In this document: positions 21,137 to 51,200 of the stretch, one piece after another | Position numbering within the stretch: the stretch's first letter is position 1 | How the letters are laid out: each line of letters begins with the position of its first letter | Source of the DNA: Rhizaria sp. SCN 62-66 | Taxonomy: Eukaryota | DNA length: 64,000 nucleotides | NCBI GenBank assembly: GCA_001724265.1 | Contig: MEDY01000087.1 | Location: forward strand, 1-64,000 | Direction: 5' to 3' | Program-made: the position numbers and the translations under genes | Notes under the pieces: generated by a model | Told to the model about the DNA's origin: nothing | Seen by the model: the letters and a program-made list of their open reading frames with translations, nothing else | The model's database searches: none

Positions 21137-21985
21137 GCGTGAGATTGTTAAGGTCGCGGAGAGCGAGCTGGGAGAAGTCTGGGTAGGAACAGGCGAAGTG
21201 GTTCAATCGAGGTATTGAAAAAAGTCTTTTCTTCTACGAAAGAGACATCCGAGAGAAAATAATTAAATGTGAGATTAATTTTACACGAATACCGTTTATA
21301 AAATGACGCAAAGCTTACACAAGCGATTGTAACATGTGTGTCTGGTCTCTGCGAATGTGACCGTTACGTGACTTTCATCCCTTCCAACCGACCGTGCGCC
21401 TTCGGTCAGCACTCACTGAAGATCAGTTACGCTAGTTAAAACAATAGCATACAGCATCAAAATAAGGTCAAGTTAAGATACCACAACATAAAACACATAT
21501 GAGCATTGCTGTTACAAATTGGTACATTATTTTAACCAGATTAAGCTGACGTATACTTTCCGTTTAATATAAAGTCATGTTATGTATCACGACCCGTGAA
21601 TGCAGCATGCATTTGGGGATTAATAGAACACCAGAATTTAACAAAACAATCAAATATCGCAGATCACGAGCATATCCGAGAAGCACATGAGACTAAAATA
21701 AACGTATACTTGCTTGTGGACTTGAATCACACTCAACAGGACGCAATACGAGTGACAAGATTAAGGAGGCAAGTTAATCTTTAGGACGAATCAAAACAAA
21801 TGAAGAAAGTTAAAATGAAGGTACTAAAAAGTGCGAATGTTGACTTGCTTCGCACCGATAACCAAGCTGACAATTTACTGTACAACAGCTGAGTACCAAG
21901 ACTAGCTTGTGACAGTAGTTACAACCATCACCGCTGACTGACTTGATAACACGCACTTTGCGAGCGCATGGCAAATGAGGCATGC

Positions 21986-24900
21986 TTAGTCCTTAGCCTT
22001 GTTGGCGTGCTTGAGCAGGTGGAAGTAGTTGTCAAGGCGGCGCGACGTGGCCGAGAGCGCCTTCTTGAGCTCAGCCTTGAACTGGTCGACCGCGGCCTTC
22101 TCGCTGACGTCGAGGCAGAGCTGCTGGCGCATGTAGTCGACGTCGCCCGCGGAGAGCAGCTCGGGCATGCCAGCGGGCACCATGAGCGTGAAGAGGTTCT
22201 CCAACTCGCTCGCGTGTTTGCGCAGACACAGGAACGCGTCGTAGCAGAGGTCCTTGAAGAGCTTGAACTGCTTCGAGGCCTCGTAGTTCTTGCCGCCCAT
22301 CACGAAAGCCATTTCGGGCGTGAACACGAAGGCAGAGCGCTCGCGCTTGAAACCGTACTTGCTCTTAAAGTTGCCGAGGAAGTGGCCGAAGTCGATGTGG
22401 AAGAGGTGGCCGTCCTGCGTGACCATGATGTTGCCGTTGTGGCGGTCTCCGATGCCCATGACGTAGGTCGCTACGCAGTAGCCCGCGCACGAGTACGTGA
22501 AGTTGTTCACAGCCTTGTCAAACTGCTCCTGCGTCGGGTTGTGCAGGCGCAGGTATTGGGCCAGCGGCTCGAGCTTGAACGCGCCGCCGGCGCCTCCGCC
22601 GAACTCCATCTGGATGCCGGCCGTGGTGACGGAGCGCAGCACGACCTCAATCAGACCGCAGCCGCGGCCCGACTGGCCGGGGTTCACGGCCCAGCCGCCC
22701 GCGCCGTGGCCGCCGTGGCCGCCGCCGTCCTCGCCCCCCGCGGCGGCGAGCGCGCCCGCGGGGACGGAGGGCTCGTTGTCGTCGCCAACGCTGTTGCTGT
22801 CCATGAGCATGTTGTTGTTGCTGTACTGGTTGTGATGGTGCGCAGAGATAGGCGCGGCCGAGCCCGCGGAGCCCGTGGCGATGACGCCGTAGGGCGACAG
22901 CCGCAAGTCCATCTTGTTCTGGAGCCAGATCTCGTCCATGACCTTGAGCACCTGCAGCGTGAGGATGTCCTGGCGCAGGTCGTCGCCTGACTTGAACATG
23001 ACGTAGATGGGCGCGGCCGACTCGTCGTTGGCGTTGCGGAACACCAGCCACAGCGGCGCCATCTTGCTGCTCATGATCTTGCACCGCTCGGGGATCAACG
23101 TCGCCGCCTCCACGCGCGGGTTCAACGGGAGCTGGAAGCGGCCACCGGGGAGGCGCGCGAAGAAGTCGCGGTTCAGCGCGTGAAGCTGCTGCTGGTAGAA
23201 GGCCGTGATCTGCTTGTCGCTCATCTTGCCCGCGCTGCGGCGCGTCTGGATCGTCTGGGCGAGCCGGCGCAGCTTGTCCACGGCGACCTGCTGGTAGCGC
23301 AACTGCTCGGCAGCCACGGGACAGAAGGACAGGAAGACCTCGAGGATGCACGCGAAGCGCTCGGCGTAGGGCGGGTCAACCGAGATCTCGTTTTTGAGCG
23401 ACCAGTAGAGGTAGTGACCGACCTGGAAGGGCGCCGCGAGCGCGCGCGTGAGCAAGAAGCGGCTCAGTGGCGAGTCGTGGTACGCCTCGGCCTTGAGGCA
23501 CTGCGTCAGCTGCGGCAAGTACAGCTGCACGTCCGGGTCGGAGAGCACTGCGTCGAGGCAGGCCACGGCGTAGGCGCGCACGTTGTAGTCGGCGAACCGC
23601 GGGCCAAGCAACTGTGAAGTAGGAGCGAATGGAGTTGAAGACGGGCGATCATGAGATTTAATGATACAGATAAGAACATGTTGAGAATAAGTTATGATCA
23701 GAGCAGTTGTTTTGTGACTGGTGAATCGATAGATCGACGTACGGCAAGCGCTTCGGCGGGGACACGGGACTTCTTCCAGACACGGAGTAGGCGGGCCGCG
23801 TCGGCCCTGTGCGGGGCCGAGAACCAGGGCACCGAGAGCATGACCTTGCCCACCATGTGCGGCTTGTCGGTCAGGCACCAGCGCACGGACCACAGCAGCT
23901 GCTTGTCCTTGGGCGTCAAAGAACCCTCCAGAAGAGCATCCTATGACAAATCATGCAGGAATTCAAAAGTAAAGGTTAGATGTGGAACATCAAAGCATGG
24001 GATAATCACATTGGACTAATTGGGACTGTGAGATAATGATATAATATCGTTGCGTAGCCGTACCTGGTGCTCGAGAATCATGAGCTGGGCGCGTTGGTCC
24101 TTATCAAGGTCCTCCAAACGCACACAGAACCCAGCCTGGTAGCTGGACTGTGGCGGCGCCACAAGTTGCGCACCATGACCACCGGCAACAGGCGCAGTGC
24201 CGCTTGTCGACGAACTGCTGCTGTTGCTGTTGCTGCTGCTGGAGCGGAAGGCAGAGAAGAACCCACTGAGGCCGCCGCCACTGGAGCTGCTCGTGGTCGC
24301 GGCGGGGGGCGCGGGGGCCGGGACGGCGGGCGCGGCGGTGGCCGAGTGCGGCGGCGGCGGGGGCGGCGGCAGCGGCATGTCGTCCACCAGCTCGGGCTGC
24401 GGGTGCCGCACGGGGGCCACGAACGAGTCAAAGCTCACCGTGAGGCGCGGCGCGTTGGGCGAACTGAGATTCGGCCGGTTCACGCAGAGCCAAGCGTAAG
24501 AGCAGCGCGAGAGCTCAAGGTTGCGCACGCACAGCGTGCCGGGGCTCACCGTGGCGGCGAACTTGGACGAGGACGAAGACGCCGACGACTGCGAGGACGG
24601 CGCCGGGACCGCGCCCTTGGACACAGACCACTCGAGCGGGACCTGGCCCGCGGCGAGCATGCGCTTGCGCTCCTTCTCGCGTTCCTTGTCCGTCATCGCG
24701 GTCGTGCCGGCGACCATCACGGCCGCCGCAGCCCCGGCGCCGCGCTCCGCCGCAAGAACAGTCTGCCCCGACGCGCCCAGTACCTGCCATACTGACCGGT
24801 CGACGAGCAGCCCGCGGCGGGCGGCGCCGCGCATCGCGCTGCCGACCGTGTTGCTGTTGCTGTTGTACACGGTGGCGCGGCCCGTGGGCACGCCCGAGCT

Positions 24901-27900
24901 GATCGAGACTGAGTCGCGCGAGGACGATGACGCCGTCGACACCACGCTGCCCGGGTAGCGCGTGCTCGACAGCTCGGCCGCGTGCGAGCTGCGCAGACCG
25001 GCGCTGCTGCCGCTCGCCAGCGCGGCACGGCTACCCGCCGTCGCGGCGGCGCCGGCGGCCGCGGCGGCGTTGGCGGCCGCGGCGGCCGAGTTAGCGGCGG
25101 CGATCGCGGCGGCATTGGCAGCTGCCGCGGCGGCGGCGGAGGCCATGGCAGACTGCTCGCTGTCAGGCGGCGTGCACCACAGCGGGAGGTTGTGGGTCGC
25201 GCTGACGAGACAGTCCTCCGAGTCGAAGAGCTGCATGCTGGTCCACGCGAGCACCGTGTCGGGGGCGCCCGCGGTCGCGGCAGACTCGTCCTGCTGCGCG
25301 ACGACGAGGAACACGAGGCGCGCGGCGCGGGGCAGCGACGCCAGGTACACGGGCGAGTAGAGCGTGAAGGCGCCGTTGGGGCCCAGCGCGCTACTGCTGC
25401 TGGTGCCCGACTCGGCGGCGGCGATGGCCGCGGCGGGGGAGAGGTGGCCTGCCCAGCGTGGCGACTGCGCGCAGTCGGTGACCTCGGTAGCCGCCACGGA
25501 CTCGGGCAGCACGTCGGTGCCGTGCGCGATCAGCGAGGCCACGTACAGGCGAGTCAGATTAGGGTTGGTGAGGCGCGGCACGGCGGCGTCGACGAGCCCG
25601 TCGATGCCGAGCACGCGCAGGCGGAAGGGCGTCGCGGCCAGGCGCGTCAGCGGCAGGAACGGCGGGATCGGGTCGATGCGGGTGCTCACCGCGCCCAGGG
25701 TTGCCACAGCGGCAGCAGCGGCGTCGGCGAGGCTCGTGGAGCTGCCGCCGATGAAACTGCCGCGCGCGCCGCCGAGGACGGGCGAGCCGCGGGTGGTGGA
25801 CGAGCCGGTGCCCGCCGCGGCGACGGTCGCAGCGGAGGTGGGCAGCGCGGGCGCCGGGGGGTCGGCGGGCAGCGGGGCCAGCCCGGGCGGCAGGCAGATC
25901 GAGTCCATGAGGAAGCTGATGGAACACAGGTTGCCCGTGGGCCAGCCGCCGAGGTTGACGCCGGCCGCCGCGGCGGCGCTGGCGGTGGCGCTCGAGGGCA
26001 CGAGCGCGGTCGCGGCGGCGCCGGCGAGGTTGAGGCTGCCGGCGCGCGGGCCCGGGCTGCCCAGCGCGGGCAACGCGCCGATGCCGGTGCCGCTGCCGGC
26101 GGTGCTGTTGGAGGCGGCGGCGAGAGTGGCGACCGTGAGCATGTGCACCGTGGTCTCGTCAGGGCGCAGTGGGCCAGAGGGGTAGCCGCTGGGGCTGGCC
26201 ACACTGCTGCTGCTGCTGCTGCTGCTCACGGTCAGTTGCTGAGACAGGAGCGACGCAACCGGCGCGGCGCCGCTGCCGCTGGAGGGGACGTCGTTGAGCG
26301 ACGCAGAGTGGGGGAGGTCCGGCTTTCTAGTCGAGCCAGCAGCGCTGTAGTCGCCGGCGGAGCTGTTGGTGTTGCTCGAGTCGCCGAGGGGCGCGAACAG
26401 CGAGCGCATGCTGCTGCCCGAGCTTGCGCTGCCGCTGCCGGCGCCAACGGTGCTGTAGCCGCCAAACGGGAGTCCGCCGCCGGCGCCGAGCCCGCCGAGC
26501 GCGGCGAGCCCGAGCAGCGGCCCGCTGCCGCGGCGGGTTAGCGTGCCCATGCCGCCCAGCGTCGGCGTGTAGAGCGCGGGCACCGAACACGACGAGACCG
26601 CCTGCGGGTGCAGCGCGCGCGCGCGGCCGGCGGCGACGAGCGCGGCGAGCACGGGCAGCGGCCCGCCGATGGGCACGCCCGCCGCGGTCGTCACCACGCT
26701 GTCGCCGCCCGGGGTCGCGCCGCCGGCCGCACCAGCAGCGGCGCCGCCCGGAGTGCCCGCGCCGGCCCCGCCTGCGAGCGAAGCGCCGGTGAGCAAGGGC
26801 GAGCCGTCGGCGGCGCTGGTGCCCGCGGCGGCGGCGGCGTCGATCTCGTGCAGGATCGAGTAGCGGAACATGCCGGAGCCGGCCGCAACGCGCGGCATCG
26901 ACAGCCGGCGCGAGCCGTCCTGGGGCGTATACCCCGCGGCAGACAGACTACTGGAGGTGCTCTGCGGGACGGGCGGCGACATTGGCGGCAGACCGGCGGC
27001 TGTGGACGCGCTGTCGGTGCCTGCAGCAGCCGCCGCCGCGGTCTGTGCTCTGGACGCCGCGATGAGCGCGGGGGCAACGGTAAGCACTTCGTTCTCGTCG
27101 TCGTCATCGTTCTCATCATCGGCGGCGTCCTTCTTAGCAGCAGAACCGGCAGCGGGGGCAGATGCGTCCTTGCTGTCCTTGGCGGGGGCCGCCGCGGGCA
27201 TCGCGCCCGACGCGGGCGCGAACGGGGACGCAGCCGCAGCCGCAACAGTGCCTGCGCTGGCCTTCTGTCTAGCCGCAGCGGCGGCGGCGGCGGCGGCGGC
27301 GGTGGGCGTGTCATCCGGCGACGCGTCATAACGCAGGAGCATCGCCGGAGATGCCAGTGGCGAGCCGCCCGCAACGTCGACGTTGACGTCGCTGACCCCG
27401 CCGGCAGCAGCGCCAGCACTCGCAGCAGCGTTGCCGTTGGCGCTTGCGTTCGCGGGGGGCGCGGAGAGCTGCGTGTGGTGCGTCGGCGGCGGCGGCGCGA
27501 GAGAGTCAGTACTGAGCACGCGGGAACCCATGGTCCGGTCGCCGTCGTCGCTGACGCTGCTGGTGCCGCCCGCGAGCCTGTTGTGGGGCGTCGAGGCCGT
27601 CGACGCTGGGTACGACCCCGTGACCGTGACAGCGCCGGCGACGCCTTCAGGGCCGACGACCGTGGGCGGCAGGTGCGCCATCGACACTCCACTGACGCCG
27701 ACGCCAGCGCTCGAGCCAGCAGAAGAGTTTCTGTTGCTCCCGTCCTCGCCTTCGTCGTCAGCCTCGGTGAGCGGGCACAGGCCCGTCGCACTGGCGTCTA
27801 CACCGTGTCCGTCGAGCGCGCCCGTGTGCGAGCGCGCGGTCGAGAGCGGCGTGGTCACGGCCGAGCTGTGTCCAGAGCCCGCAGCCGAGGCCAGCACGGT

Positions 27901-30900
27901 CGGCGACGGCAGCGAGAGCCCCGACTCGGAGGCCATGGGGCGCAGGCACGACGGCGTGATGACCGCACTCGTGCCCGCGCTGGCGCCCGCGCTCGCGGTG
28001 CTCTCCGTGTCGCTCGAGTCGCCAGCGCCCCCGCCGCCGCCGGCGAGCATGTGCGCCGTCGCGGCGGCCGCGGCGGCGGCCGAGGCGGCCTGGGTGACCG
28101 TAGCGCGGTGGCGCGGCTTGCCGCCGCTGCTGAAACTGCCACTGCTGCCACGGGCGGCGCCGCTGGCGGAGCCGACCGTGGGCGTAGGGGCCTGGCTCGG
28201 GAAGTGACCGTGAGCGCCGGACGCTGCCGACGGGCTGTTGGGGTCGAAAAAGACCCGCGAGCCCGTGCGCTGGTGCTGCTTACTCAAGGTGCTGGCACTG
28301 TCAGCAGCGGCGACGGCGTCGCCAGTGGCGGCGGCCACGGGACTGGGGCCGTTGCCGTGGACGCCAACCGTGTTGATGGGCAGCGTGATCGGCGTCGGCG
28401 GCGTCGCGAAGATGGCGTCAGCGGCGCCGATGGCGGCGACGACGGCGGCCTCGGAGGCGGCAGCGGCCGCGGCCACGGCGGCCGCAGTCGTGGGCGTCGT
28501 CGTCACAGTATTTGTCGCACCGTTGCCGTTGGCGGTGCCGGCGACGGCGGGGTTAGACGCGGAGGCGGCGCGAGAGGGCGTGCCCACGGTCAGTCCGCCC
28601 GTGGTGGGCGACCGGAGCGAGCCGAAGCCGTGCGCGCCGGGCCCTCCGGGGAGGCCGTGGGCGGCGCCGGGGCCCACCGAGGCGCGCGACGACGCCAGCG
28701 GGGAGCGCAGCATCGCCATCTTGGCCAGCGAGGGACTACGGTCCGCGCGGCTCGTCAGCGGGGGCGTCGCCGCCGCGGCCGCGGACCCCGCGCCCGTACT
28801 ATGGGCGAGACGGGGGGACGTCAGCTGACCCTGCGCGGCGCCGGCGGTGGTCGCGACGCGGACGCCGGGGGCCGTGGCGGCGACGCCGGCCGCGGGGCTC
28901 AGCAGCGCTGCAGGGTTGGCGGCGCTGAAGCCGGCGGCTGCGGGGTTGTTGACGTCGAGCTCGTAGCCAACCATGGGGCGCAGGGAGAATAGCTGCGCCG
29001 TCGCGGCGTCGGCGGCGCTCACGGTCCCATTCGCACTGGCACCGGCGCTGGCGCTGGCACTGGCGTCTGTGCTGCCGTCAGCGCTGGCGTTGGCCTTGGC
29101 AGCCGCGTTGCCGGTGTTGTTGTTCGTAGCGGAGAGCGGTGCGGAGGAGTTGCTGTCGGGCGACACGATGCTGAAGGTGTGTTCCTTGGTGTTAATGGTG
29201 AGCACGCGCGAAGCCGGCGCAAACAGCGAGCGCGGGGAAGCGGCCGCGGACGCGGCCGCGGACGCGGCGGCCGAGGCAGAGGTCGAGGACTCGCCAGTCG
29301 CCGCAGAGGCAGCAGTGCTGATGCCGGTGGCCGCGCCGGCCGGGATGGGGATGTTGCTCGACGGGACCGGAGTCGACTCAGTGGCGGCCGCGGAGGCAGG
29401 GGCGGCTACAGAGACGGGGAGAGTGGACGGAGCGGAGGAGGAAGGGGTTGCGTCGATCGGGGCCACCGCTGCGCCATGGGCGGGCTGCGGGGCGAAGCCA
29501 GGCGTGCTCGCGCTCGCGTTCGCACTCGCGTCCGCCGAGCTTGAGCTGGCGCTGGCGCTTGTGTTGGCGTTAGCGACGGCGGTGTGGACGTAGTCGGCGG
29601 GGGCGGGTTCGGTCATGACCACGAGCTCCTCAATGCCGACGCCGCCGCCGCAACGCATGAGGTAGTCGGCGCGGCACTCGGCGCCCAGCGCGTCGACGCG
29701 GGCCTTGTCGCGCGCGTCAAGCGGCGTGCGCGGCAACAGGATCACCGGCAGCGGCCGGCCGTGGCGCAGCGCGTCGCGCGCGCACTGGAACAGAAAGAAG
29801 CAGCAATGGCCGTAGAGGCACTCGGCGAGGCCCTGCGCGCGGAGGATGTATGTGTTCGGGTCCGTGCCGGGAGGCAGGTACCGCGACACGAGGCCGCGAA
29901 TCACGCCCTGTGGATGTCGTAGAAACAAAAAACGGAGTCAACATGCAGAGAACGATACATCAGGATAAGAATATGATTTTGAAATAAAGCATTTAAGTAA
30001 AAAGTTCGGCCAAGTTTTGCATTGATTGGTGGATGAATACGGCATTACAGATGACGTGTCAAGAAAAAGAATGCGTACCTCTGCGGTGTCGCCCTCACTT
30101 ACGGCGATCGTGGTCTGGGACTTTGCCGAGAAGGCGGCGGGGAGCGCGACGGTGAGCAGCAGCGACGTGGCTCCCGGCGGCAGCGGCGGCGCCGTGGTGA
30201 TATAGAGCGGGTACTGCGCGTGCTCAGCCGCGGCGACCTGTAGCGCCGTCGTGGGCTCCAGCTCGAGTGCGGCGCGGCGGAACTGGCGCACGGTCGCGTT
30301 GTCAAAGTTCCAGTAGACGGTGTTGAGGTTGAGCAGCGAGAGCACGGGGGAACGCTCGCCGAGCCCCATGGACTCAAAGTCGTCCTTGATGTTCTTGATC
30401 ACCGTGTCGATGTCGTCCAGGATCGAGTGCAGCCCGTCAGCGACGGCCGAGCTAAGCCGCGCCTCGCGAGCCACCATCTGGGAGATCTCGTCGTGGAAGG
30501 AGAAGAGCCGGCTCGCCACGCGGCGCATAAACTCGACCGTCTGATACGACTCGGCGTGCTCGGAGACGTCCAGCAGCTCGTCCTGGCCCTGAGGCTGCGG
30601 CTGCGGCTGCGAGTAGGCGCCCTGCTGCTGTTGCTGCTGCTGCTGTTGCTGCTGGAGGGCGGCTGCGGCGGCCGCCGCGGCGGGCGGCGGCGGCGGGCGC
30701 CCGTGGTTGCTCACCATCGCGCTGCCGCGGCGGCCCGAGTTGAGCGCGGCGGCGGCCGCGGCGGCGTTGGCGTTGGCGGCGGCGATCGACACGGCCGCGG
30801 CGGCCACGCCGGAGCGCGGGGGCGATGACCCCGCACCGTGACTCGCGCCGTGGCTGCCTCCGGCACCGTAGTGGGAGCCGGCGGCGGCGGCGTTGCCGGT

Positions 30901-31902
30901 CATGCGGGGCGGCGGCGGCGGCAGGATCGTGCCGCGGGGCGCGCTCGCGGTCGGCACCAGCAGACTCGCGGCACTGCCGCCAACGCCAGCGTGGCTGTGC
31001 CCGCTGTGTGTCGTGTGTGTGGAGAGCAGCGGCGGCGGCGGCGGCACAGCCCCAGGCTGGCTGGCGCTGCCGCGGCGGCTGAGCGCCTCGGGCGGCGGCG
31101 GCGGCGGCAGGGAGCCGCGGCGGCCGACCGCGCCAGCGACGGAGCTGGCGGTCACTGCGGCGGGGTTCGCGCTGGCACTGTGAGTGTTGTCGGGGACGAT
31201 GATGGACACAGAGCCCATGATGCCGACGCTGGCGTGCGGCTCCGCAGCGGCGCCGCCGGTCTTGGTGGCAACGGCCGATGGCAGCGGCGGCGGTGGCGGG
31301 TGCGTGTGGCCCTGCGCCGCCGCGCCGGAGCCAGCGGCAGAGCCAGCAGCGGCGGCGGCGGCGAGGGCGGCCTCGGCCACGGCGGGCGGCGGCGGCGGCG
31401 GGGGCTTGTAAGCGCCGCCGGCAACAGTGGCAAACTGCGGCGGCAGCGGCGGGGGTCCCGATGAGCCCACTCTGCGGACGGTGGACATATCGACGGCGCC
31501 AGCAGAGGCACTTCCACTGACACTGGAGTCAGCGGGTGTGGCGCCGCCCACAACGTAGCTGGTGCTCGGGACAATCGACACCGCGTCTGCGGGGTCGGCC
31601 TGCTCGTCGAGCTCCTTCCACGCCGAGAGCTGCGCCGCGGCGTTGGTGCGAATCGAGCTGATCACGGTGGCAGCGTCACTGGACTGCACGCTCGTGCGCC
31701 GGACGGAGGAGGCCGCGGCGGTGAGCGTCAGCGAGTCGTTCACGCCCGTACTGTCGTCCAACGACGCGCCAAGCAGCAGCGCAAGGTCGGCCTCGGTCGG
31801 GCCGGCGGGGGCGCCGGGGCTCGCAGAGCTGCCGCCTTCGTTAGCACCCTTGTTGTGGGGAGCTGACGAATCTGCGGACGTAGACTTAGAGGGAGACGAC
31901 AT
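21986..31902 (-). CDS. Phosphatidylinositol 3-kinase catalytic subunit, class I-type architecture (RBD-C2-helical-kinase), ~3163 aa; exons 31902-30079, 29907-24064, 23940-23743, 23611-21986
   Basis: Kinase motifs CKIMSSKMAPLWL, FKSGDDLRQDILTLQ, SCAGYCVATYVMGIGDRHNGNIM, LFHIDFGHFLGN, RERSAFVFT; helical domain LYLPQLTQCLKAE; C2 motif VYLASLPRAARLVF; RBD-like YILRAQGLAECLYG. Three phase-0 GTACG..AG introns; ends TAA. Confidence 0.93.
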
Positions 31903-33983
31903 CACGAGGATTCGCAGCAATTACAGTCACGTAACAACGTGGTGTGTGCAAGCAGTTGTGTGTTAGAGCGAGACAGACTGTTGGGAGCGGTGGAACGCTT
32001 GGCAAAGTGAATGGGGCGCAACGGCCGCGTGCGTGCCTTGGCTTGGTGCAAGAGAGGGTGCCTAGACGGCAGAAAAAGAGGTAACGGGACACACAACTGT
32101 TATGAATAGATATTAAGGTATAAATTAATGACGAATAACGCAAACATATATGTCCACAAAGAGGCTAACAAGTACAGCAACATGACTCCAAAGTCGGAGC
32201 GAGGCATGCGCCTCTCGTCACCGAGTCGACGTATGAGGTCAAATAGCATAGGATGCTGATAGATTTGAGAAGTGAAAGTTTATAAAGATAGTGCACAATG
32301 TGCGTTTCTACTACGAAAGTGCATTGAATTTCAATCTTGCGGACGTGTGGCGTGTTTCTACAGCGGAATAATTCAAACATCGGCTGCTCACAGTCACAAT
32401 CTGGTCACCAACGGCAGGCGGGTCTGTTCATGTCGTGTTAGTCTGCATTTCACCATACTGTACTAGTATGAGAGGTTACTACACTCCAATCGGGAAACAA
32501 TCGCGTTTACTTTATTGTAATCTCTGTGGATTTTTTTATTGAACGCTTAATGCTCGACCTTTTTACTCAAAATCTCTCAAAAACGATGACTGAACATGGA
32601 GTTACTCGTAGTGCACTCGTGCCCGCGCTTCCCGTAGCTCAAGCGATCTCATCCGATGTTGCCGCGACAGTGGCTCTCTGTGTCGCGTGACATTAAGCGC
32701 TGTGCACCAGGCGCATCGAGACATACAATCGCGTAATGACGCGGCAAAGGTGAAGCGACATCGAGCGAAGCATCGACGCGCTGCGCTGTAAGAGATGAAT
32801 AGTGTCTAATGATACGTAATACGTACGTACGTACGTCTATGTGATGAGGAGCAATAGCATTTTAATTGGTGTCATTTTGTCCTGATGTTTGCGCGCTCAT
32901 GTGAACAAAATGAAGCATCTTGCTCCCGTTCTTAATGTCCCTGATCATGCTATTCTGATCACTATTGCCATCCTGCAACAGAACGTCATGCATCAAATAA
33001 AGAAACAACGATGACCATAACCTCAACCCAAGAATTCAGCTTCAGCTTCTCTTTCAATACGCGCATGAGCTACTTTGTCTATCTTCCCAGTATGAGAGTG
33101 GTTCATCGCGATGCGAACCGCACCATCAGAATAGTAAACGACGTAGAAGTCAGGGTCTGGATGAGAATGGCTCCTTGGGTCAAACCGATGCAAAAAACGC
33201 GCGTGAACACCAAACTTGGAACGAAGTTTAAACAAAGTGTCAGCAACCAACTCATAAGGCGGGTCGTCAGGGCCAATAAGTGCGGTCTTTTGTCGGACAA
33301 TAAAATAGCGTAAGATAGCGCCCGCTGTAGTGTGATGCTTACTTAAAGCTCAACGTATGATATGATCCATATCTGCTCTCATACGTACTGTTATTAAAAA
33401 CAGTAGGAAGATAGATACTGATAGATGCTCCATGATCAGTGCTACTAATGCAATCAACGCACCTGCCGTGTTCGGCCTTGCTTGTTGCTGGCATTCGCCA
33501 ACATGACAGATATCTGTCTAAACGTGATAATATGAACATAACATGACAAATAACAATGGTCGTGTAATTATGAATGGAAAACAAAGGAGATTGGTGCGCG
33601 GTGCAGACTCGTCCCGCTCAAGCTTTGAAGCGTCAGCGAAAGGGAGGAAACACTGTACAGAGAGCGAAATAGAATGTCAATACATGCCATGCAGATTATA
33701 TTAGTGTAACAGCACGAGATATTCATCCAAAAGCACCAATGTCCTCAAATTCCCCGTGATTGTGCCCAGTCAAAAACGCCATGTGTCGCCTGCTAACTGG
33801 GCTAAGTGCCACAAGAAGCATGACCGAAAGAATACGCGTGCAGAGCTGTGTGCTGATCGTCAATAGGAGAGCTAGAACAACATCGTGTATCGTTAAAGCA
33901 AACTCAATCGTTCTCCAAATTATATATCTTACAGAGTCCACGTTCATGCGGGAATGCGGTTGTTGTGAGTGGTGCTTTGACTG

Positions 33984-35636
33984 ATGAGCGACTCTCTCGT
34001 ATTCAAGTACAGGTTCCCCCTGGCAGCGGTCCAACAAACGCAACAAGGTGTAGACACAAAACCTGGCATAGATGCCGTTTGTGAATTAGATGTCTCGTTA
34101 TCCCTGACGGCATTGGAGCACTCTGTCGCAACAGACGCCTCACTGGAGGCCCTGACTGCGTCAACCACCACCGATACCACCAGCGGTAGTGGCGGGCATC
34201 GAGACCGCGAGCGTACGAACGCAAATCTGGCCGCGTTCACATTTGGCGTACAAGAACACGAGTATTCTGCTATGGGACTACACCCTTGGCCTTGCGGGGT
34301 AGTTCTGGCAGAGTTCTTAGCCCGTAATCCTCGGGTCTTTTTGGGTGCGACAGTGATCGAGGTACGAATATCATCCCGTAAACGGTCATAAGTGCTCTTG
34401 AAACGAGGTGATTTAAATATATTGTGTAACCTGGTATGTCATGTTTATCGCTAAAACGACTGCTTCCACTTCTTGTTTCTGGTATCCTGACGCCCATAGA
34501 TCGGTTGTGGCACTGCTCTACCAAGCTTGCTTTGTGCAACCTCTGGCGCAGCACGCGTGATCTCCACTGATGTGCACGACCAGGTGTTGGCGAACCTGCG
34601 CTCAGTTTACACGAAACACGGTTTAACTGTGACAGCATTGCCCACAATCACCGGCGTGGGAATTCTCGGCGACCAACAATCGCACGCGACAAACGTAAAT
34701 CATACGTTACGCGAGACCCCCACAGCGTGTGACTTCAGCGCAATTGTTCGGAAGAATGCTGAGGTGCATGTTTCAAAGCTACCATACGCTTGCCCTTTCT
34801 CATTTCAGACTTTGGCACGCTCGGTCGCCGCCGTGGCTACTCAAAAACACCAATCATTTGGTGCACATGTGCCAGGCGGACGGATTACGCCGAGCCACTC
34901 ACCGAGGCATCACGCTGGGAAGCGCGGACTGCGTGTACATTGGACGCTTGCGGCTGACGTAGCGTATAGCCCGGACACTGCGGCTGAGGCGGTCGCTCTG
35001 ATTGCTAAAATCGGCGCTCCAGCTCTTGTTGTACGTTTATAGTTTCTTGGAGCGAATAGCATAGACTTAACGAACCTATTGCTGCATCATTTTCAGTGTC
35101 TCTTGTAATTTATATGAGATTCGTTAAGACAAAACTCTCATCTCACTTGTATTTGAACGATTTTGTATGTTTCCACGTCACAGACAGTGGAGGATCGTGG
35201 CGCTGCTGTTTTGTTGGCTTTTGCGCAGTCTGCTGCAGCGTGCTCGTTGCGCTGCTATCAGATGTGGCCACAGTGTGACGCAGTGCCCGAATGCGTTGTG
35301 AACGCGTTGAAAAGCTTTGATCAGGCCACGCGAAACTGCAGTCTTGAAGACAGCCAATAGGAAAGCACACACAATACCGAAGATGAAGAGTCTGGTCAGT
35401 GGAATCCGAGGAACTGGGACTGCAATGTGGGCAAGTGGCAGCAACGCCGTGTCACTTCAACAACTGAGGTGAACATGAGCCCCAACACTAACTCTGAATA
35501 TGTCCACTATGGTCACGAATCTGAAACGGGTGTGGAAAACACTGTCAGTGATGTACACGACGGCACTACTGACGAAACTGTTGTTATGTTATACCTGATG
35601 GTCCCCAATTGCTTTCTGTCGAATAGCAGTCGTTGA
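33984..35636 (+). CDS. METTL23-like SAM-dependent (seven-beta-strand, MTF16 family) protein methyltransferase; exons 33984-34361, 34500-35030, 35184-35636; in-frame TAG at 35358-35360
   Basis: GLHPWPCGVVLAEFL, motif I VIE|IGCGTALPSL, VISTD, motif II LAADVAY, LV|TVEDR; the likely last strand TVVMLYLMVP lies after the TAG; the frame closes at TGA 35634-35636. If TAG is a true stop, the CDS ends at 35360. Confidence 0.8.
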
Positions 35637-35966: not shown

Positions 35967-38900
35967 TCAGTTATCACCTTGAGTGTTGGTGACCCGCGAG
36001 TGAGCAGTGTTCATATTCTCAGTCGTGTCAACAAGAGCAAGAGTAATGCCTGTGTCTGAGCCTGCAGCTGCGGCAGCAGCAGCAAGCGATGATGGCAGTG
36101 TCACGACATTCTTGCCTCCAGAGGCATTACCTCCAGAGGCGTCAGCGCCCGTGCCGGTGGCCGCAGCAGAAGACTCCGCAGAGTTGACAGTGGAAGTATA
36201 TGTCTGCAATGAATCAGCATGTGCTTGCAGCCGGTAAAACATCGATGAAGGAGCAGCTTTGCGCACGAACCTGCCACCCACGCGAGGCTGCATGGCGCGA
36301 CTACCTTTGCGTCTGCCCAGAACGCCGAGTGCGACAGCACGGCTGGCAGCATCGTTGTTTTCTAGTGATTGTTGACCTTCAAGTTCGTCACCATCATCAT
36401 CGCCAAAATCATCATCCTCATCCCCGCCGTTGTTCTCTTCATCTTGCTCATCACTTTCCAGTGCCCGCTTCCGCCCCCGATTTACGGTCATATCTGCATT
36501 CGCACTTAAAAACAGCGTCTTCCCAGGGCGGCGACCCTTAATCTGCTCCCTTGGCACCATCTTAAACAACATGCTCGGTAGCACACCTGCAGCCGCGGCA
36601 GTCGCGTTCGCAGTCACCATAGCGTGCGTCGATGCAACTTCGCCGCCGGAAAAAGCTGTAGTCGACATCATCAAAATGTCTGCCGCCGTAACAGCGGCGA
36701 AGGCGACGCCCTCTGCTGCAGCAGCAAGTGAAACGGGATCGCCTGTGCGCGCGGCTGTCGTGGCAGCCGCGGCGGCAAACGTTCGCGTCGTTGTAGGGCC
36801 GTTGGGAGACGGGAATGATGGCAGAATAAGAGAACTCAGCGAGAGTAAAAGTTGCAGGTATCGCTGGCTAGGCAAATGTTGAGAGTTGTTAGTCGGGATG
36901 TCACCACTGTCACTGTTCGTATGGCTCTCAGTGCAACTCTCGGACTGTTTAGGCCATGCGTGCACAATAATCCGCGCGACCGGTGTGCCGCCCATTCTGT
37001 CCGCAACGGGCACAGTCGTCACAGCGCACAAGGCACCGGCCGAAGCAAGCAAAAGCGCGAGCGATGCCGCGAGCGAGCCAGAGGGAACCCAAGAAACACC
37101 ATTCTTAGCCTTTGATGCGGTGTCACTGGCCTGGGATGCTTTGTTATCATCCTGCGCTACTCCTTCTTTGCTAGTGGTGTCTTTTGTAGAACTATCCTTA
37201 GACGGCTTTTGCGATGGCGGCTGCGACGTCGGCATGGCATACGATGCCGAGAACAACAGATTGCCCTCTTCTGCGAGGGTGGATGGGGCCGTCACGTTTG
37301 CCGCTGCAGATGCGCTACTGGTGTCAGCGTTGTCGACTGCATTGCTCTGGTTGCTCGTAAAGGGGGTGTCTGAGAAGGGCAAGTTCAGATATTCGTCGAA
37401 ATCATTGTCATCTTCGTCATCAGTTCCACACGCGGTTCCGGAGCCAGTACTACCATCACTGTCATCACCACTAGAGCTACCACCACCACTGTTCTTGCGA
37501 CTGAGCGAAGAGCTGACTGTCTGGGCATCAGTCTTTGACACCGTACTGTGACCGTTGCTGGCATTATCGGCCTTCTTCGCATCAAAAGTTGAAAGTGCTG
37601 GCACACGAGACGGAGTTATGTAAATTTTAACCTCAACGACAGCACAAACCTTGACCATGAGCTCACGCACACCGTCATCGTCGTCATTTTCTCCAGTAGG
37701 ATCGTCGTTGTCTAGAGCTGATGAGGTGGTGCTCGTTGGAGATCGGTCGGCACTAGTTTTACTGTCACTGCCATAATCATCACGTGTAGCTGCATTTTTC
37801 TCGAGCATATCCTTGAGCCTGTTTTTGCGAGACGATGCAGGCACCAGTAGCGGAATATACTGCGCGTCCGGCTCCACTGGCAACGGCGCCTGCGCGCATA
37901 CATCATAGACTGAAGTGCCCAGCGTGACATATCTGTTCTCAACGTCGCTTGTCACGCCTGTCTGCATCATCAAAGTGATGCGCAGAAACCGCGGGCCACA
38001 CCTGCGTGGGCTTGGCAGCGGTGGCGCAGGCAGCGACGACAGAAAACCGCGTTTGCGAGCACCATGGGAAAGCCAGGGGTTGGTGATATAAGGCAGGTAT
38101 GCCGCGGGCACGGTGGTGAAGATGGTGTCAGAGTTCGGTAAGATGAACGGGATAGTCAAGCACGATGAAAGCGCGCGTTGCGTAAGCGGAGCATACGTCT
38201 CGGATGAATCAGACAGATTCTCTGCAGATACATCGTCTGCGGTAGCATCTTCTGTTTTGCTCACTTGCGGAACCGTCGCAGGAACCAGAAGACTATCGTC
38301 GACCTGTGGGTGGTAAGACAGCATCGCAGCGCGCAACAGAACTCTACCAAGTCCTTCCCGTGCCGACAGCGCACCCTCCGCAATATTACCAGCATCAGCA
38401 TCACCCGTCGCCGCGTCATTCATACCCGCGTTGCCACTTGCGGCAGCGGCAGCAGCAGTGGCAGCGGCTGCAGGTTTAGATAAAGCTGCTCCAGGCCAGG
38501 GCCAGGGCTTCGGCAGTTCAATCAGCCCTCGCGGCAGCCCCGCCTTACCAACAGCAAGCGCAAGGGCCGCCTCGGAGCCCACCACAATGGGCGCGGCGGC
38601 CGTGATCGGGCGCGGTCTCAGCCGCGGCCTGCCGCGGCGCGGCGCCTGCAGCACGCGGTTCATGCGGCGAATCACGCGCGCGCGCAGGGAAAGCGACGCG
38701 GCAATGGCGGCGGCGCGGAGCGCTTGGGAGGGAGCAGGTCGCGCGGGCAGGACAAAAGTGGAAGGAAGCGGAACAAATGGGAGCTGAGCGGCAGCCGTTG
38801 CAGCAACGCTAAGCATGGAAGCACCAGCGGCAACAACAGCGGGTGCGTTTTTAGAGCTTGCGTTTTCGACATTTGCCTCACGCGTATCAGAGTTAGAGGG

Positions 38901-41900
38901 AGCCTTGTCGTCAAGCGAAAAGTGCCAAACCGAGTCATCCCCATTAGCATTGTCACTTTGGGCATCAACATCAGCGACATCAGCTGTTGCGTAATTGCTC
39001 GCAATCTGAATATTCGAGCCATCGCCAAACTCATCGTACAACGCATTGCTATCATGGTCACGCATGGCACTCGCACTAGCACTCGTGCTAGAGCTGTTGC
39101 TGCTTGTGGTGGGCAGTGGAACAACAAAAATGCAATGATACAGCAGCGATGTGAACTCCTTGAGCACGCGCGCACGCCTCTGTTCGTAGCTCTCGTCATC
39201 GGGGACGGTGCGGGGCACCTCACTCTCGTCAGAGTCAGAGTCAGAGTCGGAGTCGCTGGTATCAGAGGTGTCCGAGTCACTAAACGCAGCATTCGCACCT
39301 AGGGTGGTGTTCGCCTTGTTGACAATGGCAATCGTGGCAAACTGTTCGCGCCACTCTAGAGCGCGCGAAGGCAGAGCTAGCGCAGCGCGCAGAGCGGCAG
39401 CGCCGCCAGGAAAGCGAATCTCGGCTCTCAAGTGTGTGTTCACAACACCCGGCGCAAGATGATGCGACCGTGAGTGCGACTTACTCCCGGTGATGGAGCT
39501 GTTATTGGAGTGGCGAATATAGTACACCTCGACTAAAGGCACGCGCCTGAGTCCAGAAGTGGTTGTGCTGCAATTGCCGTCATTATTGGCGTCGTTACTC
39601 GTGGATAAAGACGAGGGTACCACTGGAAGAACGTACCTCACGAGACGTCCACCGCCGGAAACTGCGGCGATCGTCGGCGATAGCGCGACGAGTGCAGGGT
39701 TAAACGTACTCCGACATAACGGCACGCGCACGCCTGTAACGCCGAGAACAGCTCCAGTTCCACTGCCGCCGGGACCAAGAGTCTTAGGATCAGTTGCAGC
39801 AAGTGCAGCTGCAGTGGGCGGAGGGGGCACGCGACAAACAGCCTTGTTGATTTGACCGAAACCGATGTTGCTGCTACTACTTGAGCTATTAGTGGCAAGC
39901 AAATGACGGTTGATACGCTTTTGATTCCTGCGATAACGTTCGCTAGCAGCCACCAGCGCCTGCAACACTACAATTGCATCGTCATCGCATGCACCAGCGT
40001 AATCCTTGGGAGTGTCAGCAAACTGCGTCGCAGTGGGCACCACACCGCGCCACACCAGTCCGGTCGAGTCCTCCCATGGAGCGCCACCAGGAACGGTCAA
40101 CGCGCGCAGCAGCGCCGCATGCGCACGAGCTTGACGCGGCTGCAGTGGCTTCTGAGAGCTCAGTGACCCCACGATCGGCCTCGGCACCGACATTGACTGG
40201 GAGTGTAATGGGAGCTGTGAGAACGGGAATTGCCCACGAGCCAGTGCAGCAAGTGCAGAGCGTGGCACTGCTGCAGGACCCAAAGGCTGGGAGAGCACAA
40301 ACGAGCTATCGTTCGTTGTGGCGTCGGCACGGCCGTTGCGTCCCCCGTGCTCCGCCAACGCTGTCTCGGCACTGGGTGGCGACGACTGCGCGCGCACGCG
40401 CGCAAGCCTGATCGCGACGCTGGCAGCGATGACATGGATTCCTCGTGTTGCCAGACTAGATGGCAACAACACGGATGTGGGCTGACGCGGGCGGACCAGC
40501 GTTGCCTGAGAATAATCCACGTTATCGTTGCTGTTCTGAGGCTTGCGTCGGTCCTTCTCTGCAACTTCTGCATCATAGTCAGCGTAACTGTCTTTACGGG
40601 GGCGGCCTGGGCGGCGCTTAATCTCCACGACACTATTGTCTTCACCATTGTCGGCAGCTGGCAAACTTGGACTTAGACGTTCACTCTGGCTCGCGTCGTC
40701 GTCTCCTCCAAGCGGCAACTGCAACAGGCCATCATCCTCGGGCCGCACACGCCGCACGCGAATCGCGCGAGGCGCCAAGAACAGAGAGTGGTGCGCTGCC
40801 GATATCATCTCTTGACTTTTGCGGCGCACCGCAGCAGCTGCCGCAATCGAAGCGACAGGACCAGACATGCTTGGGGCAAACTGCGTGTCGGTTCCCGGAG
40901 ATGGAGAGCGGGAAGCGCGCATGCTCGGGATGCCGAGACTGGCAGCGGACCTGACGGAAGCACGAGTACCAGCAGGGCCTGATGAGTGAATATCATCGCC
41001 GGTGTTGCTATTGCTGTTAGAAGCCTGATCGTCAATTGTCGCGGGAATTAACTGTTTGGGCGCAATACGTTGCCCCTTGACACTGGTATTGGGTGAAACC
41101 CCACTTCCAGTGTTCACACCGAGTTGCATGCTCGTTGCAGTGCCATTCTGGGACTGCTTAGCAAGCAGATGTGCAAGCGCCAAATTTTGATGCTGTTGTT
41201 GTTGTTGTTGGTGCAGTTGTTGTTGTTGAAGTTGCACATGGTGTTGTTGCTTCATGACAATCCCCACCACATACATCCCACCAAGCGGAGTCAGCTGTGT
41301 CACCAAATCTGCTGTACTTGTGCCTGCGTCCGAGCACCGCAGTGCCAGCCACGTTGCGCCGGCAACAGCTGTCGTGACCGCGGGACTGTCATTACTACCG
41401 TGTTTGGTGTTCGCAGCAATCACTGCTGCGGCAGCGTCAACCTGGTGCTTCAACAGGAGCTCCCAAATGGCGACGGGAGACATTCCTGCAGAGACGCTAA
41501 GTGCCGAGTACAACGCCGCAAAGGCCTGGCGTTGCGAGTCAATAAATTCCGGTGAAACGTCATTAAGCGTGAGACCTGGCATTGCAGAAGCAACATCCTG
41601 GGAGGCGACAGACTCAGCCATTGTGTTCGTGTTGATGCTGCTTTTGTTACGTGCGAGTGACCCCGTGCCACCAGCAGCGCTGCCTCTAGCAGTGCCAGCC
41701 CCAGCCCCGCTGTTGGACAAAGGCCCCACCGGGGGACTGAGCGATTTCAACTGTGACAACGATGGCGACTGCAAGTGCAACTGTGACATGGGTTGTAATT
41801 GTGCAGACAGTGACTCGGAACTAGGCGTACTATGAGAGGCATCGGCCGCCCTAGCAGCGCCTCTGGATGAGCTTTGTTGTGCAAGTTGAGTGTGTGTCGT

Positions 41901-44900
41901 CTGCAATTGTTGCATGAGCTGTAACTGCTGTTTCTGCATCATCGTCTGGTGTAGCTGCTGAACGCTCTGAAGTTTCAAGCGTAATGCAGTTTCTTTTTCA
42001 GACAGTTCCTGCATTTGCGACAAAGCAGCGTTTGCGGCAGGTGCGTCACTTGACAGCAGAGATGACGCAGAGGTCATTATGGTGCGGCGCTGAGACAGCA
42101 CCGCTTGAAGCTGCGCTTGCAGCAAAGCCTCCTCCTGCTAAGTCGCAGCCAAGGTCGCAGCGGTTACATTACCAAGAGCACTCGCTGCGCCTCCCTCGCC
42201 TGCGTTAGCGTTAGCATTGAAAGCACGAGTGTTGTCAAAATGAGGGGGCTTGGTAACGTGCATAGCAAAACCACCTTGGCTGAGAGTTGCCTGCGCTTGT
42301 GACTGGGACTGAGAGTGCGGCTGTGGGGGGCGACGTTGCTGCATGTAGTTGTCATCACCGTCGCCCGGTGCGACCGTGGTATCATACATGTCGTTTCCAT
42401 CGCGACCGTCGTCTGTTGTCGGTGCAGCAGTTTGTTGCCGATATTGCAGCTGCGACTGCGCCTCAGCGTCCGCTAGTGCCAGTGACCGCGCTTGCGCCTG
42501 CGCATGACGCGCTTGCAGTCGTAATTGCGCCTGTGACGGAGCAGGGACGTTCGACTGTTTAGGCTTCGGTAGTAGCGGCCTCATCTGTTGCATCTGCCTT
42601 TCTTGTGACAGAAGGTTTTGCTGCTCTTGGAGAAGAATATTCTGCTGCGCCTGTAACAACTGTTGGTGCTCGTAAAATGAGTTTCCATTCGACTCAATCT
42701 TGCTAATATCGGCGTTGTCCTGGCTCTCGCGCTCGCGCTTCACACGCATCAACGCGGTCGAGCCATTTCCAACTCCAGCACCAAATCCGACGTTAGTGTT
42801 AGAGACCGTGCTCGCAAATGAACTTGCGTTAGCGAGGGCGCTACCAGTGGCATATAAGCCCTGTGGCGCGGGCGCCTTGAGGTGCAATCGCACTGCCAAC
42901 AGCGCTGCGTGTGCGCGGGCAGCGCCCACCGCGCGGCGCAACACGCGGAGCGCGAGGCTGCACATGGTGGGAACGGGGAGTCGCCGATGCTGCGTCTGTT
43001 GCGACTGAGACTGAGACTGAGAGATGGAGTGCATCAGCAGCAGAGGCGATCCCGCGCGGGAGGCAGAGCGTGACTGCTGCAACTGCGCTGTCGCATAACT
43101 CCCTCTGCTGTTGCTACCACGCATCTCCACGAGCAGTTGCGCGACGCTCGTCATGCGGCACGCAAACACAAGCGCCGCCTCACCGCCATTCTCGGACAGC
43201 TCGGCCATCGCGATGTCGGCGGGGCTGGCAGTCGGCGTCGGCCGCTCGAGCGCGGATTCGTTGCTGATCCATTTGGCGTGCCCGTCATGGGTTGCACCGA
43301 GAGGCGAGTTGCCGGTGTCTCTGGCCGCAGCTGTCGCAGACGCAGCAGCAGCTGCAGTATATGCAGCAGCATTGGTACCATATTCACCTCCAACCTTCGC
43401 GTTGTTGTTGCTTATAGAAATGCTCTCATCGCCATCGTCGTCGCCACTGTTGTCGCTATAAAACGTGCCGTAGCATGTGTCCGCGTATTCGGCGTCGCGT
43501 TGTATCGCCTCGGTGAGCGGACCAAGCGTCATACTCACCGGCATGCCGAGGATAATTGATCGCAGCAAGTGTGCGAGGCCCGTCACGCCGTGGGGACCCA
43601 GTGTGGCAAAGTGCAGGTACTTCTGCAGCCGGTGCACATGCAGCCCTGCTTCGGACAGCGCGCGGAGGCTGCTGTCTGAGCTGCCAGGGGTCGTCGCCGA
43701 GGTGTGGGTCCGACCGTCATCGGCGTCGTCATCGATGCCGATCTGGTGGCCAGCAGCTGCCGTAACATTGCCATTGCGACTGCTGCTGCGGCTCGCGATG
43801 TTGTCAGCAGCACTGGTATTCGCACTCGTATTGGTGGTGCTGTTTTGCGCGTGTGTCGTCATTGCCACGTGAAAAGTGTGTGGCGTGATAAGATGGTCCT
43901 TGTTGACAACCCTCGCAATCATTGCGTACGCCATCGATGTCAACCGCTCGCGTTCCTTCACTTCCGTCGGGTTCGCCTGCGCCGGCGCGGGTGGCGGCCG
44001 GGTGCGCATGTTCATCGCGCAGTCCACAACCTGCTGCATCAGCGCGCTGTCCAGCCCGTCGTCGTCGCCGACCCCGCTCGCCGCGGCCTGCACCAGCAGC
44101 AGCTCCAGTAGCGTCGGCAGCGGCAGGTGCAGCAGTGACTCGCCGACCCGCGCCACCACGGCCTGCGCGGCCGCAAGCGGGTCCGCCGACGCCGCGACCG
44201 TCGAGGCGGCCTGCGCAGCCGCCTTCGCCGCGGCAATCGCGGTCTCGCGCGCGGCGCCCGTGATCGAGGCGGGGAGCTCGGCGGGGGTGCCGCAGAGTGT
44301 CATGGCGGCAGCCAGCGCAGCCTGCGCTGCCGCGGCCGCCGCGGCCGCAGCGGCCGCAGCGGCCGCAGTGGCAATTGGGCCGGTGCCCGCGGAGCCCGAT
44401 ATCGTGGTCGCGACGGCTGCGGTGACGCCCGCGAACAAGTCCGGCTGACGCACGCGCAGCAGCTCGGACAAAGCCAGCTTGAGCGCGCGTTCGCGGCTCT
44501 CGCGGACACGCCGGGACATCTGCAGCCGCTGAGTCTTGGCCACCGGAAGCGCGGCGGCGAGCCCGACCCACTCGGCGTTGAGGATGTACTTCTGCGCGTG
44601 TGACCGCACTTGCAGCGCGTCCTTAGTCCACACCAGACGCGCGATGCGCTTCCAATTGCGGCCATAGACAGTCAGGCCGGCGACGAAGACGCGGTGCTCG
44701 CGGCGCGTCCACACAATGCGCGGCCGCCGCTGTCGCGATCCCGCAACGGGGTGCAGCGGCACTTGGCCGGCCGCCGTTGCGGCCGCGGCGGCTGCAGCGA
44801 CGGCGCGCGAGCGGAGCATCTCCTCACGGCGGTGAACCGCGTCGGTTACAAGCGCGTCGAGCGTCTCGTCGCCGGAGTCTTCGACGCCGAGCAGCAGCTT

Positions 44901-50102: not shown

Positions 50103-51200
50103 AGAGCGGTAGATGCAGGAGCGTGCGCCTGAGGACGGGAGTGAGATTGGCGGCCCGGCGCAGATCTCTGGCGCGAAGGGGCGAGAGGAGGAAACAAGAC
50201 CTGGATTTTCAAGAGCAGGAAGCTCGTTGGTTCCAATGTGTTCGGGTAAATAGGTCTGATCAAGTATGAAGGAAATGATTGTCATGTTGTGAGTGCTTAC
50301 GGGGTAGATTCTGTGGCGCTAGATAGTAAAATAAGCGAGTTGGACTTCGCCAAGGTGGAGTCTGGACGATCGAAAGTAGATCCGCCGATTGAATTTGGAG
50401 CCCCAGAAACCGTCACTGAGTCATGAAAGAAAAGCAACATTCGTGCATATATAATATGTAGGTATTTTAAAAAGCATATCCTGCACTGGGCACTATAGAA
50501 GGCTATCAGTCGAGTTCACACTAAAATCGCTGACCGCGCCGAACTTGCCCCCGAGATCGTAGAACTACCAGTTCGCTCTGCAAACCCATATGTATGCGAT
50601 GCATACAAATGTATATAATTGCTTCGTAATGTACAATATGTGAACTCTTGATCGCCGTGTTTGTGTAGAAATAACCACGTTGCCTTATTGCGTAAATCTC
50701 TTCTATGTGAAGCGTCGGTCTTGCGGTGAGTGGAGGTGCGTAACTGTTTGTGCCACAGAAATAACAAAATTGGATATGTACACGCCCTCCTTAAGAGCAA
50801 TCTAATTAAATCAGAGTTATATTACGTAAAATGCATCGAATAAACATGATGTATGACTGAAAAGAACTATTGTATCCGTAATCACGCAATATATCCCTCC
50901 CCCGTTCGGTTGGACTCGCTGAAATGGTCGAGGCGACCTCGAACTCAGGGGGTATTTCTTTGTTTTTTTGTGTTGTTCATGTTATTTGTTGATATAAGTC
51001 TCGTATTTGCCTGATTAATTGCATCAAATGCGTATGCGTTGCTCCAAACCTCTCATATAAAGATCCACAGAGTCAACGGTGTGTTTTCTCTTTTTTCTTC
51101 GCCTTCGCTCACAAGCCACGCAAAACGTCTCACAAACGCACAAGGTAGCGGTATTGTGGCGATCTGCTTCTCGAACTTGCTTCCACACGCGCCGAGTCGC

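Follow-up and report, generated by a model that had tools for sequence, protein, structure and literature searches.

We report here that in the nuclear code of Rhizaria sp. SCN 62-66, TAG is very probably a sense codon and probably specifies mainly glutamate, and that TAA and TGA are still stops genome-wide. The reading starts from a gene for a seven-beta-strand methyltransferase, carrying one in-frame TAG, at positions 33984-35636 (+) of a stretch of 64,000 nucleotides, hereafter the window (positions 1 to 64,000 of contig MEDY01000087.1, GenBank assembly GCA_001724265.1). The window belongs to contig C87 of what we call assembly G000, which is eukaryotic and comprises 34.9 Mb in 714 contigs; positions given below without a contig are those of the window. 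An earlier note, made from the letters of this DNA, had proposed that the methyltransferase must be read through TAG to complete its fold, and that reassignment is the cause. We find that a variant nuclear code operates genome-wide, the methyltransferase being just one of the ordinary genes that depend on it.

The gene has three exons. Exon 1 (33984..34361, +) opens with ATG at 33984, holds an LHPWPCG motif and the start of motif I, and aligns to an orthologue, P0125. It is followed by intron 1 (34362..34499, +; 138 nt, GTACGA..TAG, donor score 7.6), by exon 2 (34500..35030, +), which runs from motif I (IGCGT) through strand 4 to the start of strand 5, and by intron 2 (35031..35183, +; 153 nt, GTACGT..CAG, donor score 5.8). 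Both introns coincide exactly with gaps in the alignment to P0125. Exon 3 (35184..35636, +) consists of 150 codons with one presumed sense TAG and ends with TGA at 35634-35636. Within it, GAC AGC CAA TAG GAA AGC occupies 35349-35366, so that the in-frame TAG lies at 35358-35360 (+); as the earlier note had described, 91 open codons follow up to the TGA, the tail ending in DETVVMLYLMVPNCFLSNSSR. A tail of this kind remained open in 0.6% of 20,000 shuffles. The spliced product measures 361 residues as far as TAG and 453 as far as TGA, the TAG being codon 362 of 453 and most likely read as Glu, judging from a second strain, the lack of an upstream donor and the genome-wide code data described below. 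The GC content at third codon positions (GC3) of the gene is 0.54.

The TAG recurs in sequencing run X4, which comes from another study. One X4 contig crosses 33700-36670 with six letters different from the window, none of them at the TAG, and it is identical over the tail (35361-35633); between the two strains we counted 23 differences in total, 18 transitions and 5 transversions. No GT within 35184-35340 resembles the donors of this genome (best score -0.6, against 7.6 and 5.8 for the real donors), and the 5' part of exon 3 has 55% GC, compared with 35-41% in the introns. Since no GT upstream in exon 3 scores like a donor, a role of the TAG as intron acceptor is ruled out, and with it the intron ending at AATAG 35360 that the earlier note wished to see excluded.

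P0125 (487 residues) was the sole matching protein among 7,999 scored candidates and is 41% identical to the spliced product over 242 residues. Towards its end, P0125 has an insertion of some 200 low-complexity residues and then closes with a strand in which, in a global alignment, 5/9 residues of VVMLYLMVP are identical. A BLASTP search of exon 3 against P0125 gave a match confined to the part before the TAG, the terminal strand being missed by the local search. In the window, a low-conservation linker lies 3' of the TAG (35361..35576, +), with no local match to P0125 and a predicted local distance difference test score (pLDDT) mostly <50; it is followed by TVVMLYLMV (35577..35603, +), which we assign as the last core strand on the basis of its model, the end of P0125 and structural superposition.

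AlphaFold models were obtained for the long and the short product. Both inputs included the two introns in translation; strands 1, 5 and 6 are disturbed and the mean pLDDT is low for this reason (57.5 for the read-through input and 58.7 for the other). In the read-through model, TVVMLYLMV (residues 532-540) forms a strand within a block of pLDDT 88. A fold search, carried out with this long model only, superposed it on FAM86A/EEF2KMT (Z 18.0, root-mean-square deviation 2.7, 210 residues aligned) and on METTL21 chains (Z 15.6-16.7), with the superposed range stopping at model residues 540-550 and at the C-terminal ends of the EEF2KMT and METTL21 chains. In the model of the short product, 408-412 is the last strand, the chain finishes with a helix, and residues 1-94 lose order. 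These models support the view that passage through TAG would be needed to reach the last strand, the short product being predicted to lack strand 7. A complete seven-beta-strand fold ending in strand 7, as in the Methyltransf_16 group of lysine methyltransferases, is predicted for the long product only. The comparison of the two products and the role given to TVVMLYLMV thus bear out the earlier note.

Its label "METTL23-like" is not established: the best solved matches of the fold are EEF2KMT/FAM86A and METTL21A-D, and no named METTL23 occurred among the database and fold matches seen. EEF2KMT/FAM86A and METTL21A-D share the fold through the C-terminal strand, whereas the window protein differs by long insertions, including one of ~120 residues between strands 6 and 7. 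The alignment to Pfam Methyltransf_16 (PF10294) that the note suggested as a check gave a match only for P0125, at 18 bits and so below the cut-off of 21; neither the window's separate exons nor the intron-containing read-through matched this family in the Pfam scan.

Genome-wide, TAG behaves differently from the other two stops. We trained a coding model on 713 kb and applied it ab initio to 896 kb. Following coding sequence, coding ends at 56/58 TAA and 40/42 TGA and continues after one of each (1/58 and 1/42). Among 21 TAGs in the same position, 12 continue, two are intermediate (110 and 1184 open codons) and seven score as ending; of these seven, one is followed by 192 open codons, another is intronic, a third apparently continues to an intron, and the other four could be read either way. 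Strongly coding sequence on both sides was seen at 20/2397 TAG, 2/5909 TGA and 4/2075 TAA, and another 50 kb from the contig of the window yielded five TAG, no TAA and no TGA between coding flanks. Similarly, 14 of 139 kinase matches contained stops, and inspection of all 14 revealed five with an in-exon TAG and six with a TAG inside an intron or at an intron end; TAA and TGA, present in five matches, were all intronic. No sense TAG was found in 43 DEAD or 52 kinesin matches, the TAG in 1/43 and 1/52 being intronic (two kinesin matches with TAA or TGA were left out of the inspection). A Pfam scan of 58 TAG candidates placed the TAG within a solid domain only for eRF1 and a MORN protein. The conserved gene ends that we read were TAA or TGA in 9/9 cases and TAG in 0/9.

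Sense TAGs occur at ~1-2 per 10,000 codons, in genes of lower GC3 (0.66 vs 0.78). The base that follows them (n=42: C 14, G 12, A 11, T 5) does not differ from the background after NAG codons, and the deficit of G at this position (+4) is not significant (p 0.06 and 0.34). The G after the methyltransferase TAG, which the earlier note had counted in favour of reassignment, consequently has little weight; its proposal that reassignment underlies the passage is borne out by the genome-wide data. The window holds a second sense TAG candidate (42135..42137, -), unchanged in X4, which joins frames of 2726 and 2056 codons into a 4,783-codon Myb-domain gene (35967-50318). We also note that sense-TAG candidates cluster in one 10-kb stretch (L067, G000:C42:20001-30000), where they number at least five, one of them preceding a ubiquitin hydrolase domain.

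A pattern for CUA anticodon loops matched 39 times in the genome, and one match is a tRNA according to ARAGORN. This single-copy tRNA-CUA gene (G000:C84:76009-76081, -; L041 1489-1561) scores 58 bits against Rfam RF00005 (cut-off 29), folds into a canonical cloverleaf whose D loop contains GG, whose T loop contains TTC and whose variable loop is short, and has a T-run at its 3' side. ARAGORN labels it "Pyl", a label that follows the anticodon; the structure appears unlike the atypical one of tRNA-Pyl. The contig composition correlates with that of the window's and eRF1's contigs (r=0.96-0.97). When aligned to 40 other tRNA sequences, tRNA-CUA scored best with tRNA-Glu(CTC), at 68 vs 52 for the next and 32 and 24 for the Gln tRNAs. 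The first five acceptor pairs (TCCCA/TGGGA) of tRNA-CUA recur in each of the two Glu tRNAs and its T stem in Glu(CTC), whereas G73 and pair 1-72 are unlike those of this genome's Gln tRNAs (G1-C72, U73). No second CUA tRNA was present among the 39 pattern matches, a pattern that one with a long intron would escape. The tRNA genes of this genome (L003-L031) are in general strongly diverged, for example a tRNA-Ala starting GTGG or GTGC, and often lie in small clusters.

A search of the genome for release factors revealed eRF1 and pelota, and only one eRF1. The eRF1 gene has four exons, ends with TAA and carries a mid-exon TAG at codon 111 of 441, in the N domain (L062, G000:C63:103370-103699, -). 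A JGI (Joint Genome Institute) contig bears the identical TAG; at 100% identity it is not independent. The column of this TAG in 117 homologues reads E 106, D 10, V 1 and Q 0. The GTS motif is changed to GSS (T32S), while Thr is found in 116/116 other homologues including the nearest relative, P0005. Further changes lie at the equivalents of G57, T58, L124, L126 and K130, near TASNIKS and YxCxxxF, with the NIKS and YxCxxxF cores kept. The numbering is that of human eRF1, anchored on T32 of the published description. In that description, Thr32 of eRF1 bonds with the G of UAG, and Iotanema carries T32G (PMC5304391). In a quick tree, the eRF1s of this organism and P0005 fall among environmental sequences. 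Separately, an unrelated eRF1-like sequence from a metagenome (L213 84-797) has two in-frame stops under the standard code, and its source is likely another variant-code organism.

Three lines of evidence favour Glu as the residue: the tRNA, the eRF1 column and the scoring of residues at TAG sites. When all 20 residues were summed over six TAG sites within Pfam domains, E scored highest (450.0), with poor scores for Y (440.9) and L (439.2) and the worst for W (435.8); judged by this sum, Leu, Tyr and Trp are excluded. A mixture context model of 42 sites preferred E over Q in 9/9 parameter settings, by a ratio of 1.3-21. An engineered human tRNA-Glu(CUA) is described as inserting Glu at ~95% (PMC12204705). 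Altogether we consider it probable, from these comparisons, that TAG is read mainly as Glu.

Several observations weigh against this assignment. In the Pfam sum, E leads N (449.7) by 0.3 bits only and Q and K (448.6) by 1.4 bits only, and the context model relies on assumed mutation and acceptance values; an unweighted context sum places H and Y highest and names no single residue. Q is 3-fold enriched and E 0.76-fold represented among the neighbours of TAG sites. At the TAG of kinase L179, the nearest orthologue (81% identical) has Q, and the top 50 homologues have Q 17 times, K 14 and E 3; at that of kinase L180, Q is found in NEK1, the sole solved homologue at the cut-off used. Two TAGs in the putative mobile element L237 (see below) align with CAG in paralogous copies. 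The paralogues at the kinase sites L184 (T, I) and L185 (D, D, A) are uninformative. As for eRF1, P0005 as the nearest relative has V rather than E at the TAG column, and one of 11 further eRF1s has Q there. Finally, tRNA-CUA is identical to tRNA-Glu(CTC) at only 47/73 positions, and a gapped alignment to a Thr tRNA gives 48.

The leading alternative is a sense TAG that encodes Gln, or a mixture of Glu and Gln, either by a shift in identity of the Glu-derived CUA tRNA or by a Gln-derived CUA tRNA absent from an assembly that may be incomplete. We regard this as rather unlikely, but as a serious rival. Besides Q in the nearest homologues at four sites (L179, L180 and two in L237) and the Q-rich contexts, it draws on reports that UAG-only reassignment to Gln arose several times (PMC11687900) and that amber suppressors built on several bacterial tRNA bodies take Gln (PMC9976931). 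CAG-to-TAG is, however, a favoured change, transitions being predominant among the strain differences counted above, so that many TAGs would derive from CAG and Q neighbours are expected under Glu and Gln alike. The context score observed is -0.5, where pure Gln predicts -15 to -45; the sole CUA tRNA found is set apart from this genome's Gln tRNAs by its Glu acceptor stem and its G73; and the eRF1 site has Q in 0/117 homologues.

That TAG specifies another polar residue (Lys, Asn, Asp or His) appears very unlikely. The Pfam sums of N and K are close to that of E, K is common in the L179 column, and H and Y lead the unweighted context sum, but tRNA-CUA resembles Lys, Asn and Asp tRNAs less well than Glu tRNAs, and the Asn, Asp and His anticodons are more than one step from CUA.

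Equally hard to sustain is the standard code, under which the methyltransferase TAG would be a premature stop, in a pseudogene or a truncated protein, or a site of gene-specific leaky readthrough. We note what speaks for it and against a completed reassignment. TAG is very rare in coding sequence, far rarer than expected of a settled synonym, and the four TAGs of 21 mentioned above may be genuine gene ends. The methyltransferase tail shares only its terminal strand with P0125, the remaining linker of the 91 codons being unconserved. Two RNA-labelled runs gave short low-depth contigs only, none of which, spliced or not, spans the TAG; of the RNA-labelled pieces in run X7, two run into introns and one stops at 35357. 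Nonsense mutations would, however, include TAA and TGA, yet the in-exon stops are TAG only, which weakens this explanation. In addition, the sole eRF1 found bears an in-exon TAG, the sense TAGs show no leaky +4 context, and a CUA tRNA is present.

Correction of TAG in the mRNA by editing is highly improbable. Q at several homologous sites would fit U-to-C editing to CAG, and among the RNA contigs none covered a TAG; adenosine-to-inosine editing would yield Trp, the worst of the 20 residues in the Pfam sum, and a dedicated CUA tRNA together with an altered eRF1 makes editing unnecessary. An assembly error or an intron acceptor, to which the similarity of AATAG to the end of intron 1 (CATAG) might point, is scarcely conceivable given the identical TAG in a second strain and an exon 3 with exon-like GC and no upstream donor.

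Under the preferred reading, TAG would be a rare sense codon for glutamate in a nuclear code with TAA and TGA as stops. UAG would be decoded through the one tRNA-CUA gene, derived from tRNA-Glu via a change at position 36, and eRF1 would have largely lost its grip on UAG, plausibly via Thr32Ser in GTS and further N domain changes. Ribosomes would then pass codon 362 of the methyltransferase and produce the 453-residue protein, whose last strand completes the fold. On the genomic evidence, TAG appears within intact exons genome-wide and TAA and TGA at gene ends, alongside the tRNA gene and the eRF1 changes; from these we infer that tRNA-CUA would be made and aminoacylated with Glu, that UAG recognition would be lost through the eRF1 changes, and to what degree UAG decoding would be complete.

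As a tentative possibility, the code change may have been caught midway, with a single tRNA reading UAG as Glu in continued competition with eRF1, keeping UAG rare in both roles. In that case, the UAG in the N domain of eRF1 would form a negative-feedback switch controlling the level of the release factor. The internal stop of bacterial prfB is the counterpart that we propose for a UAG within eRF1. In plants, eRF1 is described as autoregulated by readthrough (PMC5397192). At the observed rate, a TAG would occur by chance in a 441-codon gene in ~6-9% of cases, so the feedback reading is suggestive only.

Comparison with known variant codes reveals several partial parallels. UAG-only reassignment to Leu and Gln is on record (PMC5304391; PMC11687900; PMC9161772), and a Ser case in Scotinosphaera is cited (PMC11687900). 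The rhizarian exLh (UAG=Leu) and Iotanema spirale (UAG=Gln) likewise reassign UAG alone and keep UAA as a stop (PMC5304391). In contrast to exLh, Leu is disfavoured in the present genome, its score being 11 bits lower than that of Glu, and the variable loop of the tRNA is short; where Iotanema eRF1 has T32G (PMC5304391), the present one has T32S. In that study the CUA tRNA could only be predicted (PMC5304391), whereas here a gene was found and appears Glu-derived. Phyllopharyngean ciliates also reassign UAG alone, to Leu or Gln, with UAA kept as a stop, as known partly from metagenome-assembled genomes; the residue differs, and the present genome is GC-rich, with introns of 140-300 nt and no ciliate signs (PMC11687900). 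In Oligohymenophorea sp. PL0344 (UAG=Glu, UAA=Lys), the CUA tRNAs are likewise closest to tRNA-Glu, but UAA is reassigned too and there are ten CUA tRNA genes (PMC10553269); the present genome has TAA as its main stop and uses TAG rarely, and a single CUA tRNA was found in it. Peritrich ciliates (PMC11687900) and Blastocrithidia (PMC12153298) read both UAA and UAG as Glu, so that UAA is reassigned as well, unlike here. Our literature search, which left subscription papers mostly outside, found no nuclear code that reads UAG as Glu while UAA and UGA both terminate; in the literature searched, UAG=Glu is reported only alongside UAA reassignment.

Nuclear codes that split UAG from UAA are rare and mostly known from ciliates, and here the codon, a candidate tRNA and an altered eRF1 are all found in one genome. 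Because TAG is scarce both as sense codon and as stop, reassignment may be at an early stage in this organism, which may allow codon capture to be tested against the ambiguous-intermediate model. Under the standard code, annotation would cut genes short at roughly 1,000 sites, including eRF1, as extrapolated from 37 in ~946 kb, some of them possibly false. The window's DNA recurs in bioreactor and wastewater metagenomes, 4/22 listed runs (3 studies) holding at least half of its sequence words, with 3 possible sources; given this recurrence, the organism may be obtainable.

Regarding its relatives, sequence comparison points to a probably rhizarian organism, on weak evidence. Among named homologues of kinase L179, that of Plasmodiophora brassicae comes first (58%, rank 5 of 100). 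The ubiquitin genes (L235, L236, L245-L247) are divergent monomers starting MSMQIF and, where the end is seen, finishing with RGG and three residues; neither a polyubiquitin nor a polyubiquitin junction was found among the ubiquitin matches. A serine insertion is reported at some rhizarian polyubiquitin junctions (PMC13746701; PMC12930898). By analogy, the MSMQIF start may recall this insertion. The element L237 (G000:C681:1512-4727) is lower in GC, distinct in composition and internally repeated, with a ubiquitin-like domain and two in-frame TAGs. Its tail appears to resemble a phage-type chaperone domain, and L237 may be a mobile element.

The neighbours of the methyltransferase in the window were assigned by eye. 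On the reverse strand, we presume a PIP5K-like gene (462-3551), a MORN-repeat gene (12863-21202), a PI3K gene (21986-31920) and a SAM50-like gene (52634-54285), and on the forward strand a gene for a DnaJ-domain protein (55282-58843). Proteins encoded by the neighbouring genes carry long Ala/Ser-rich insertions.
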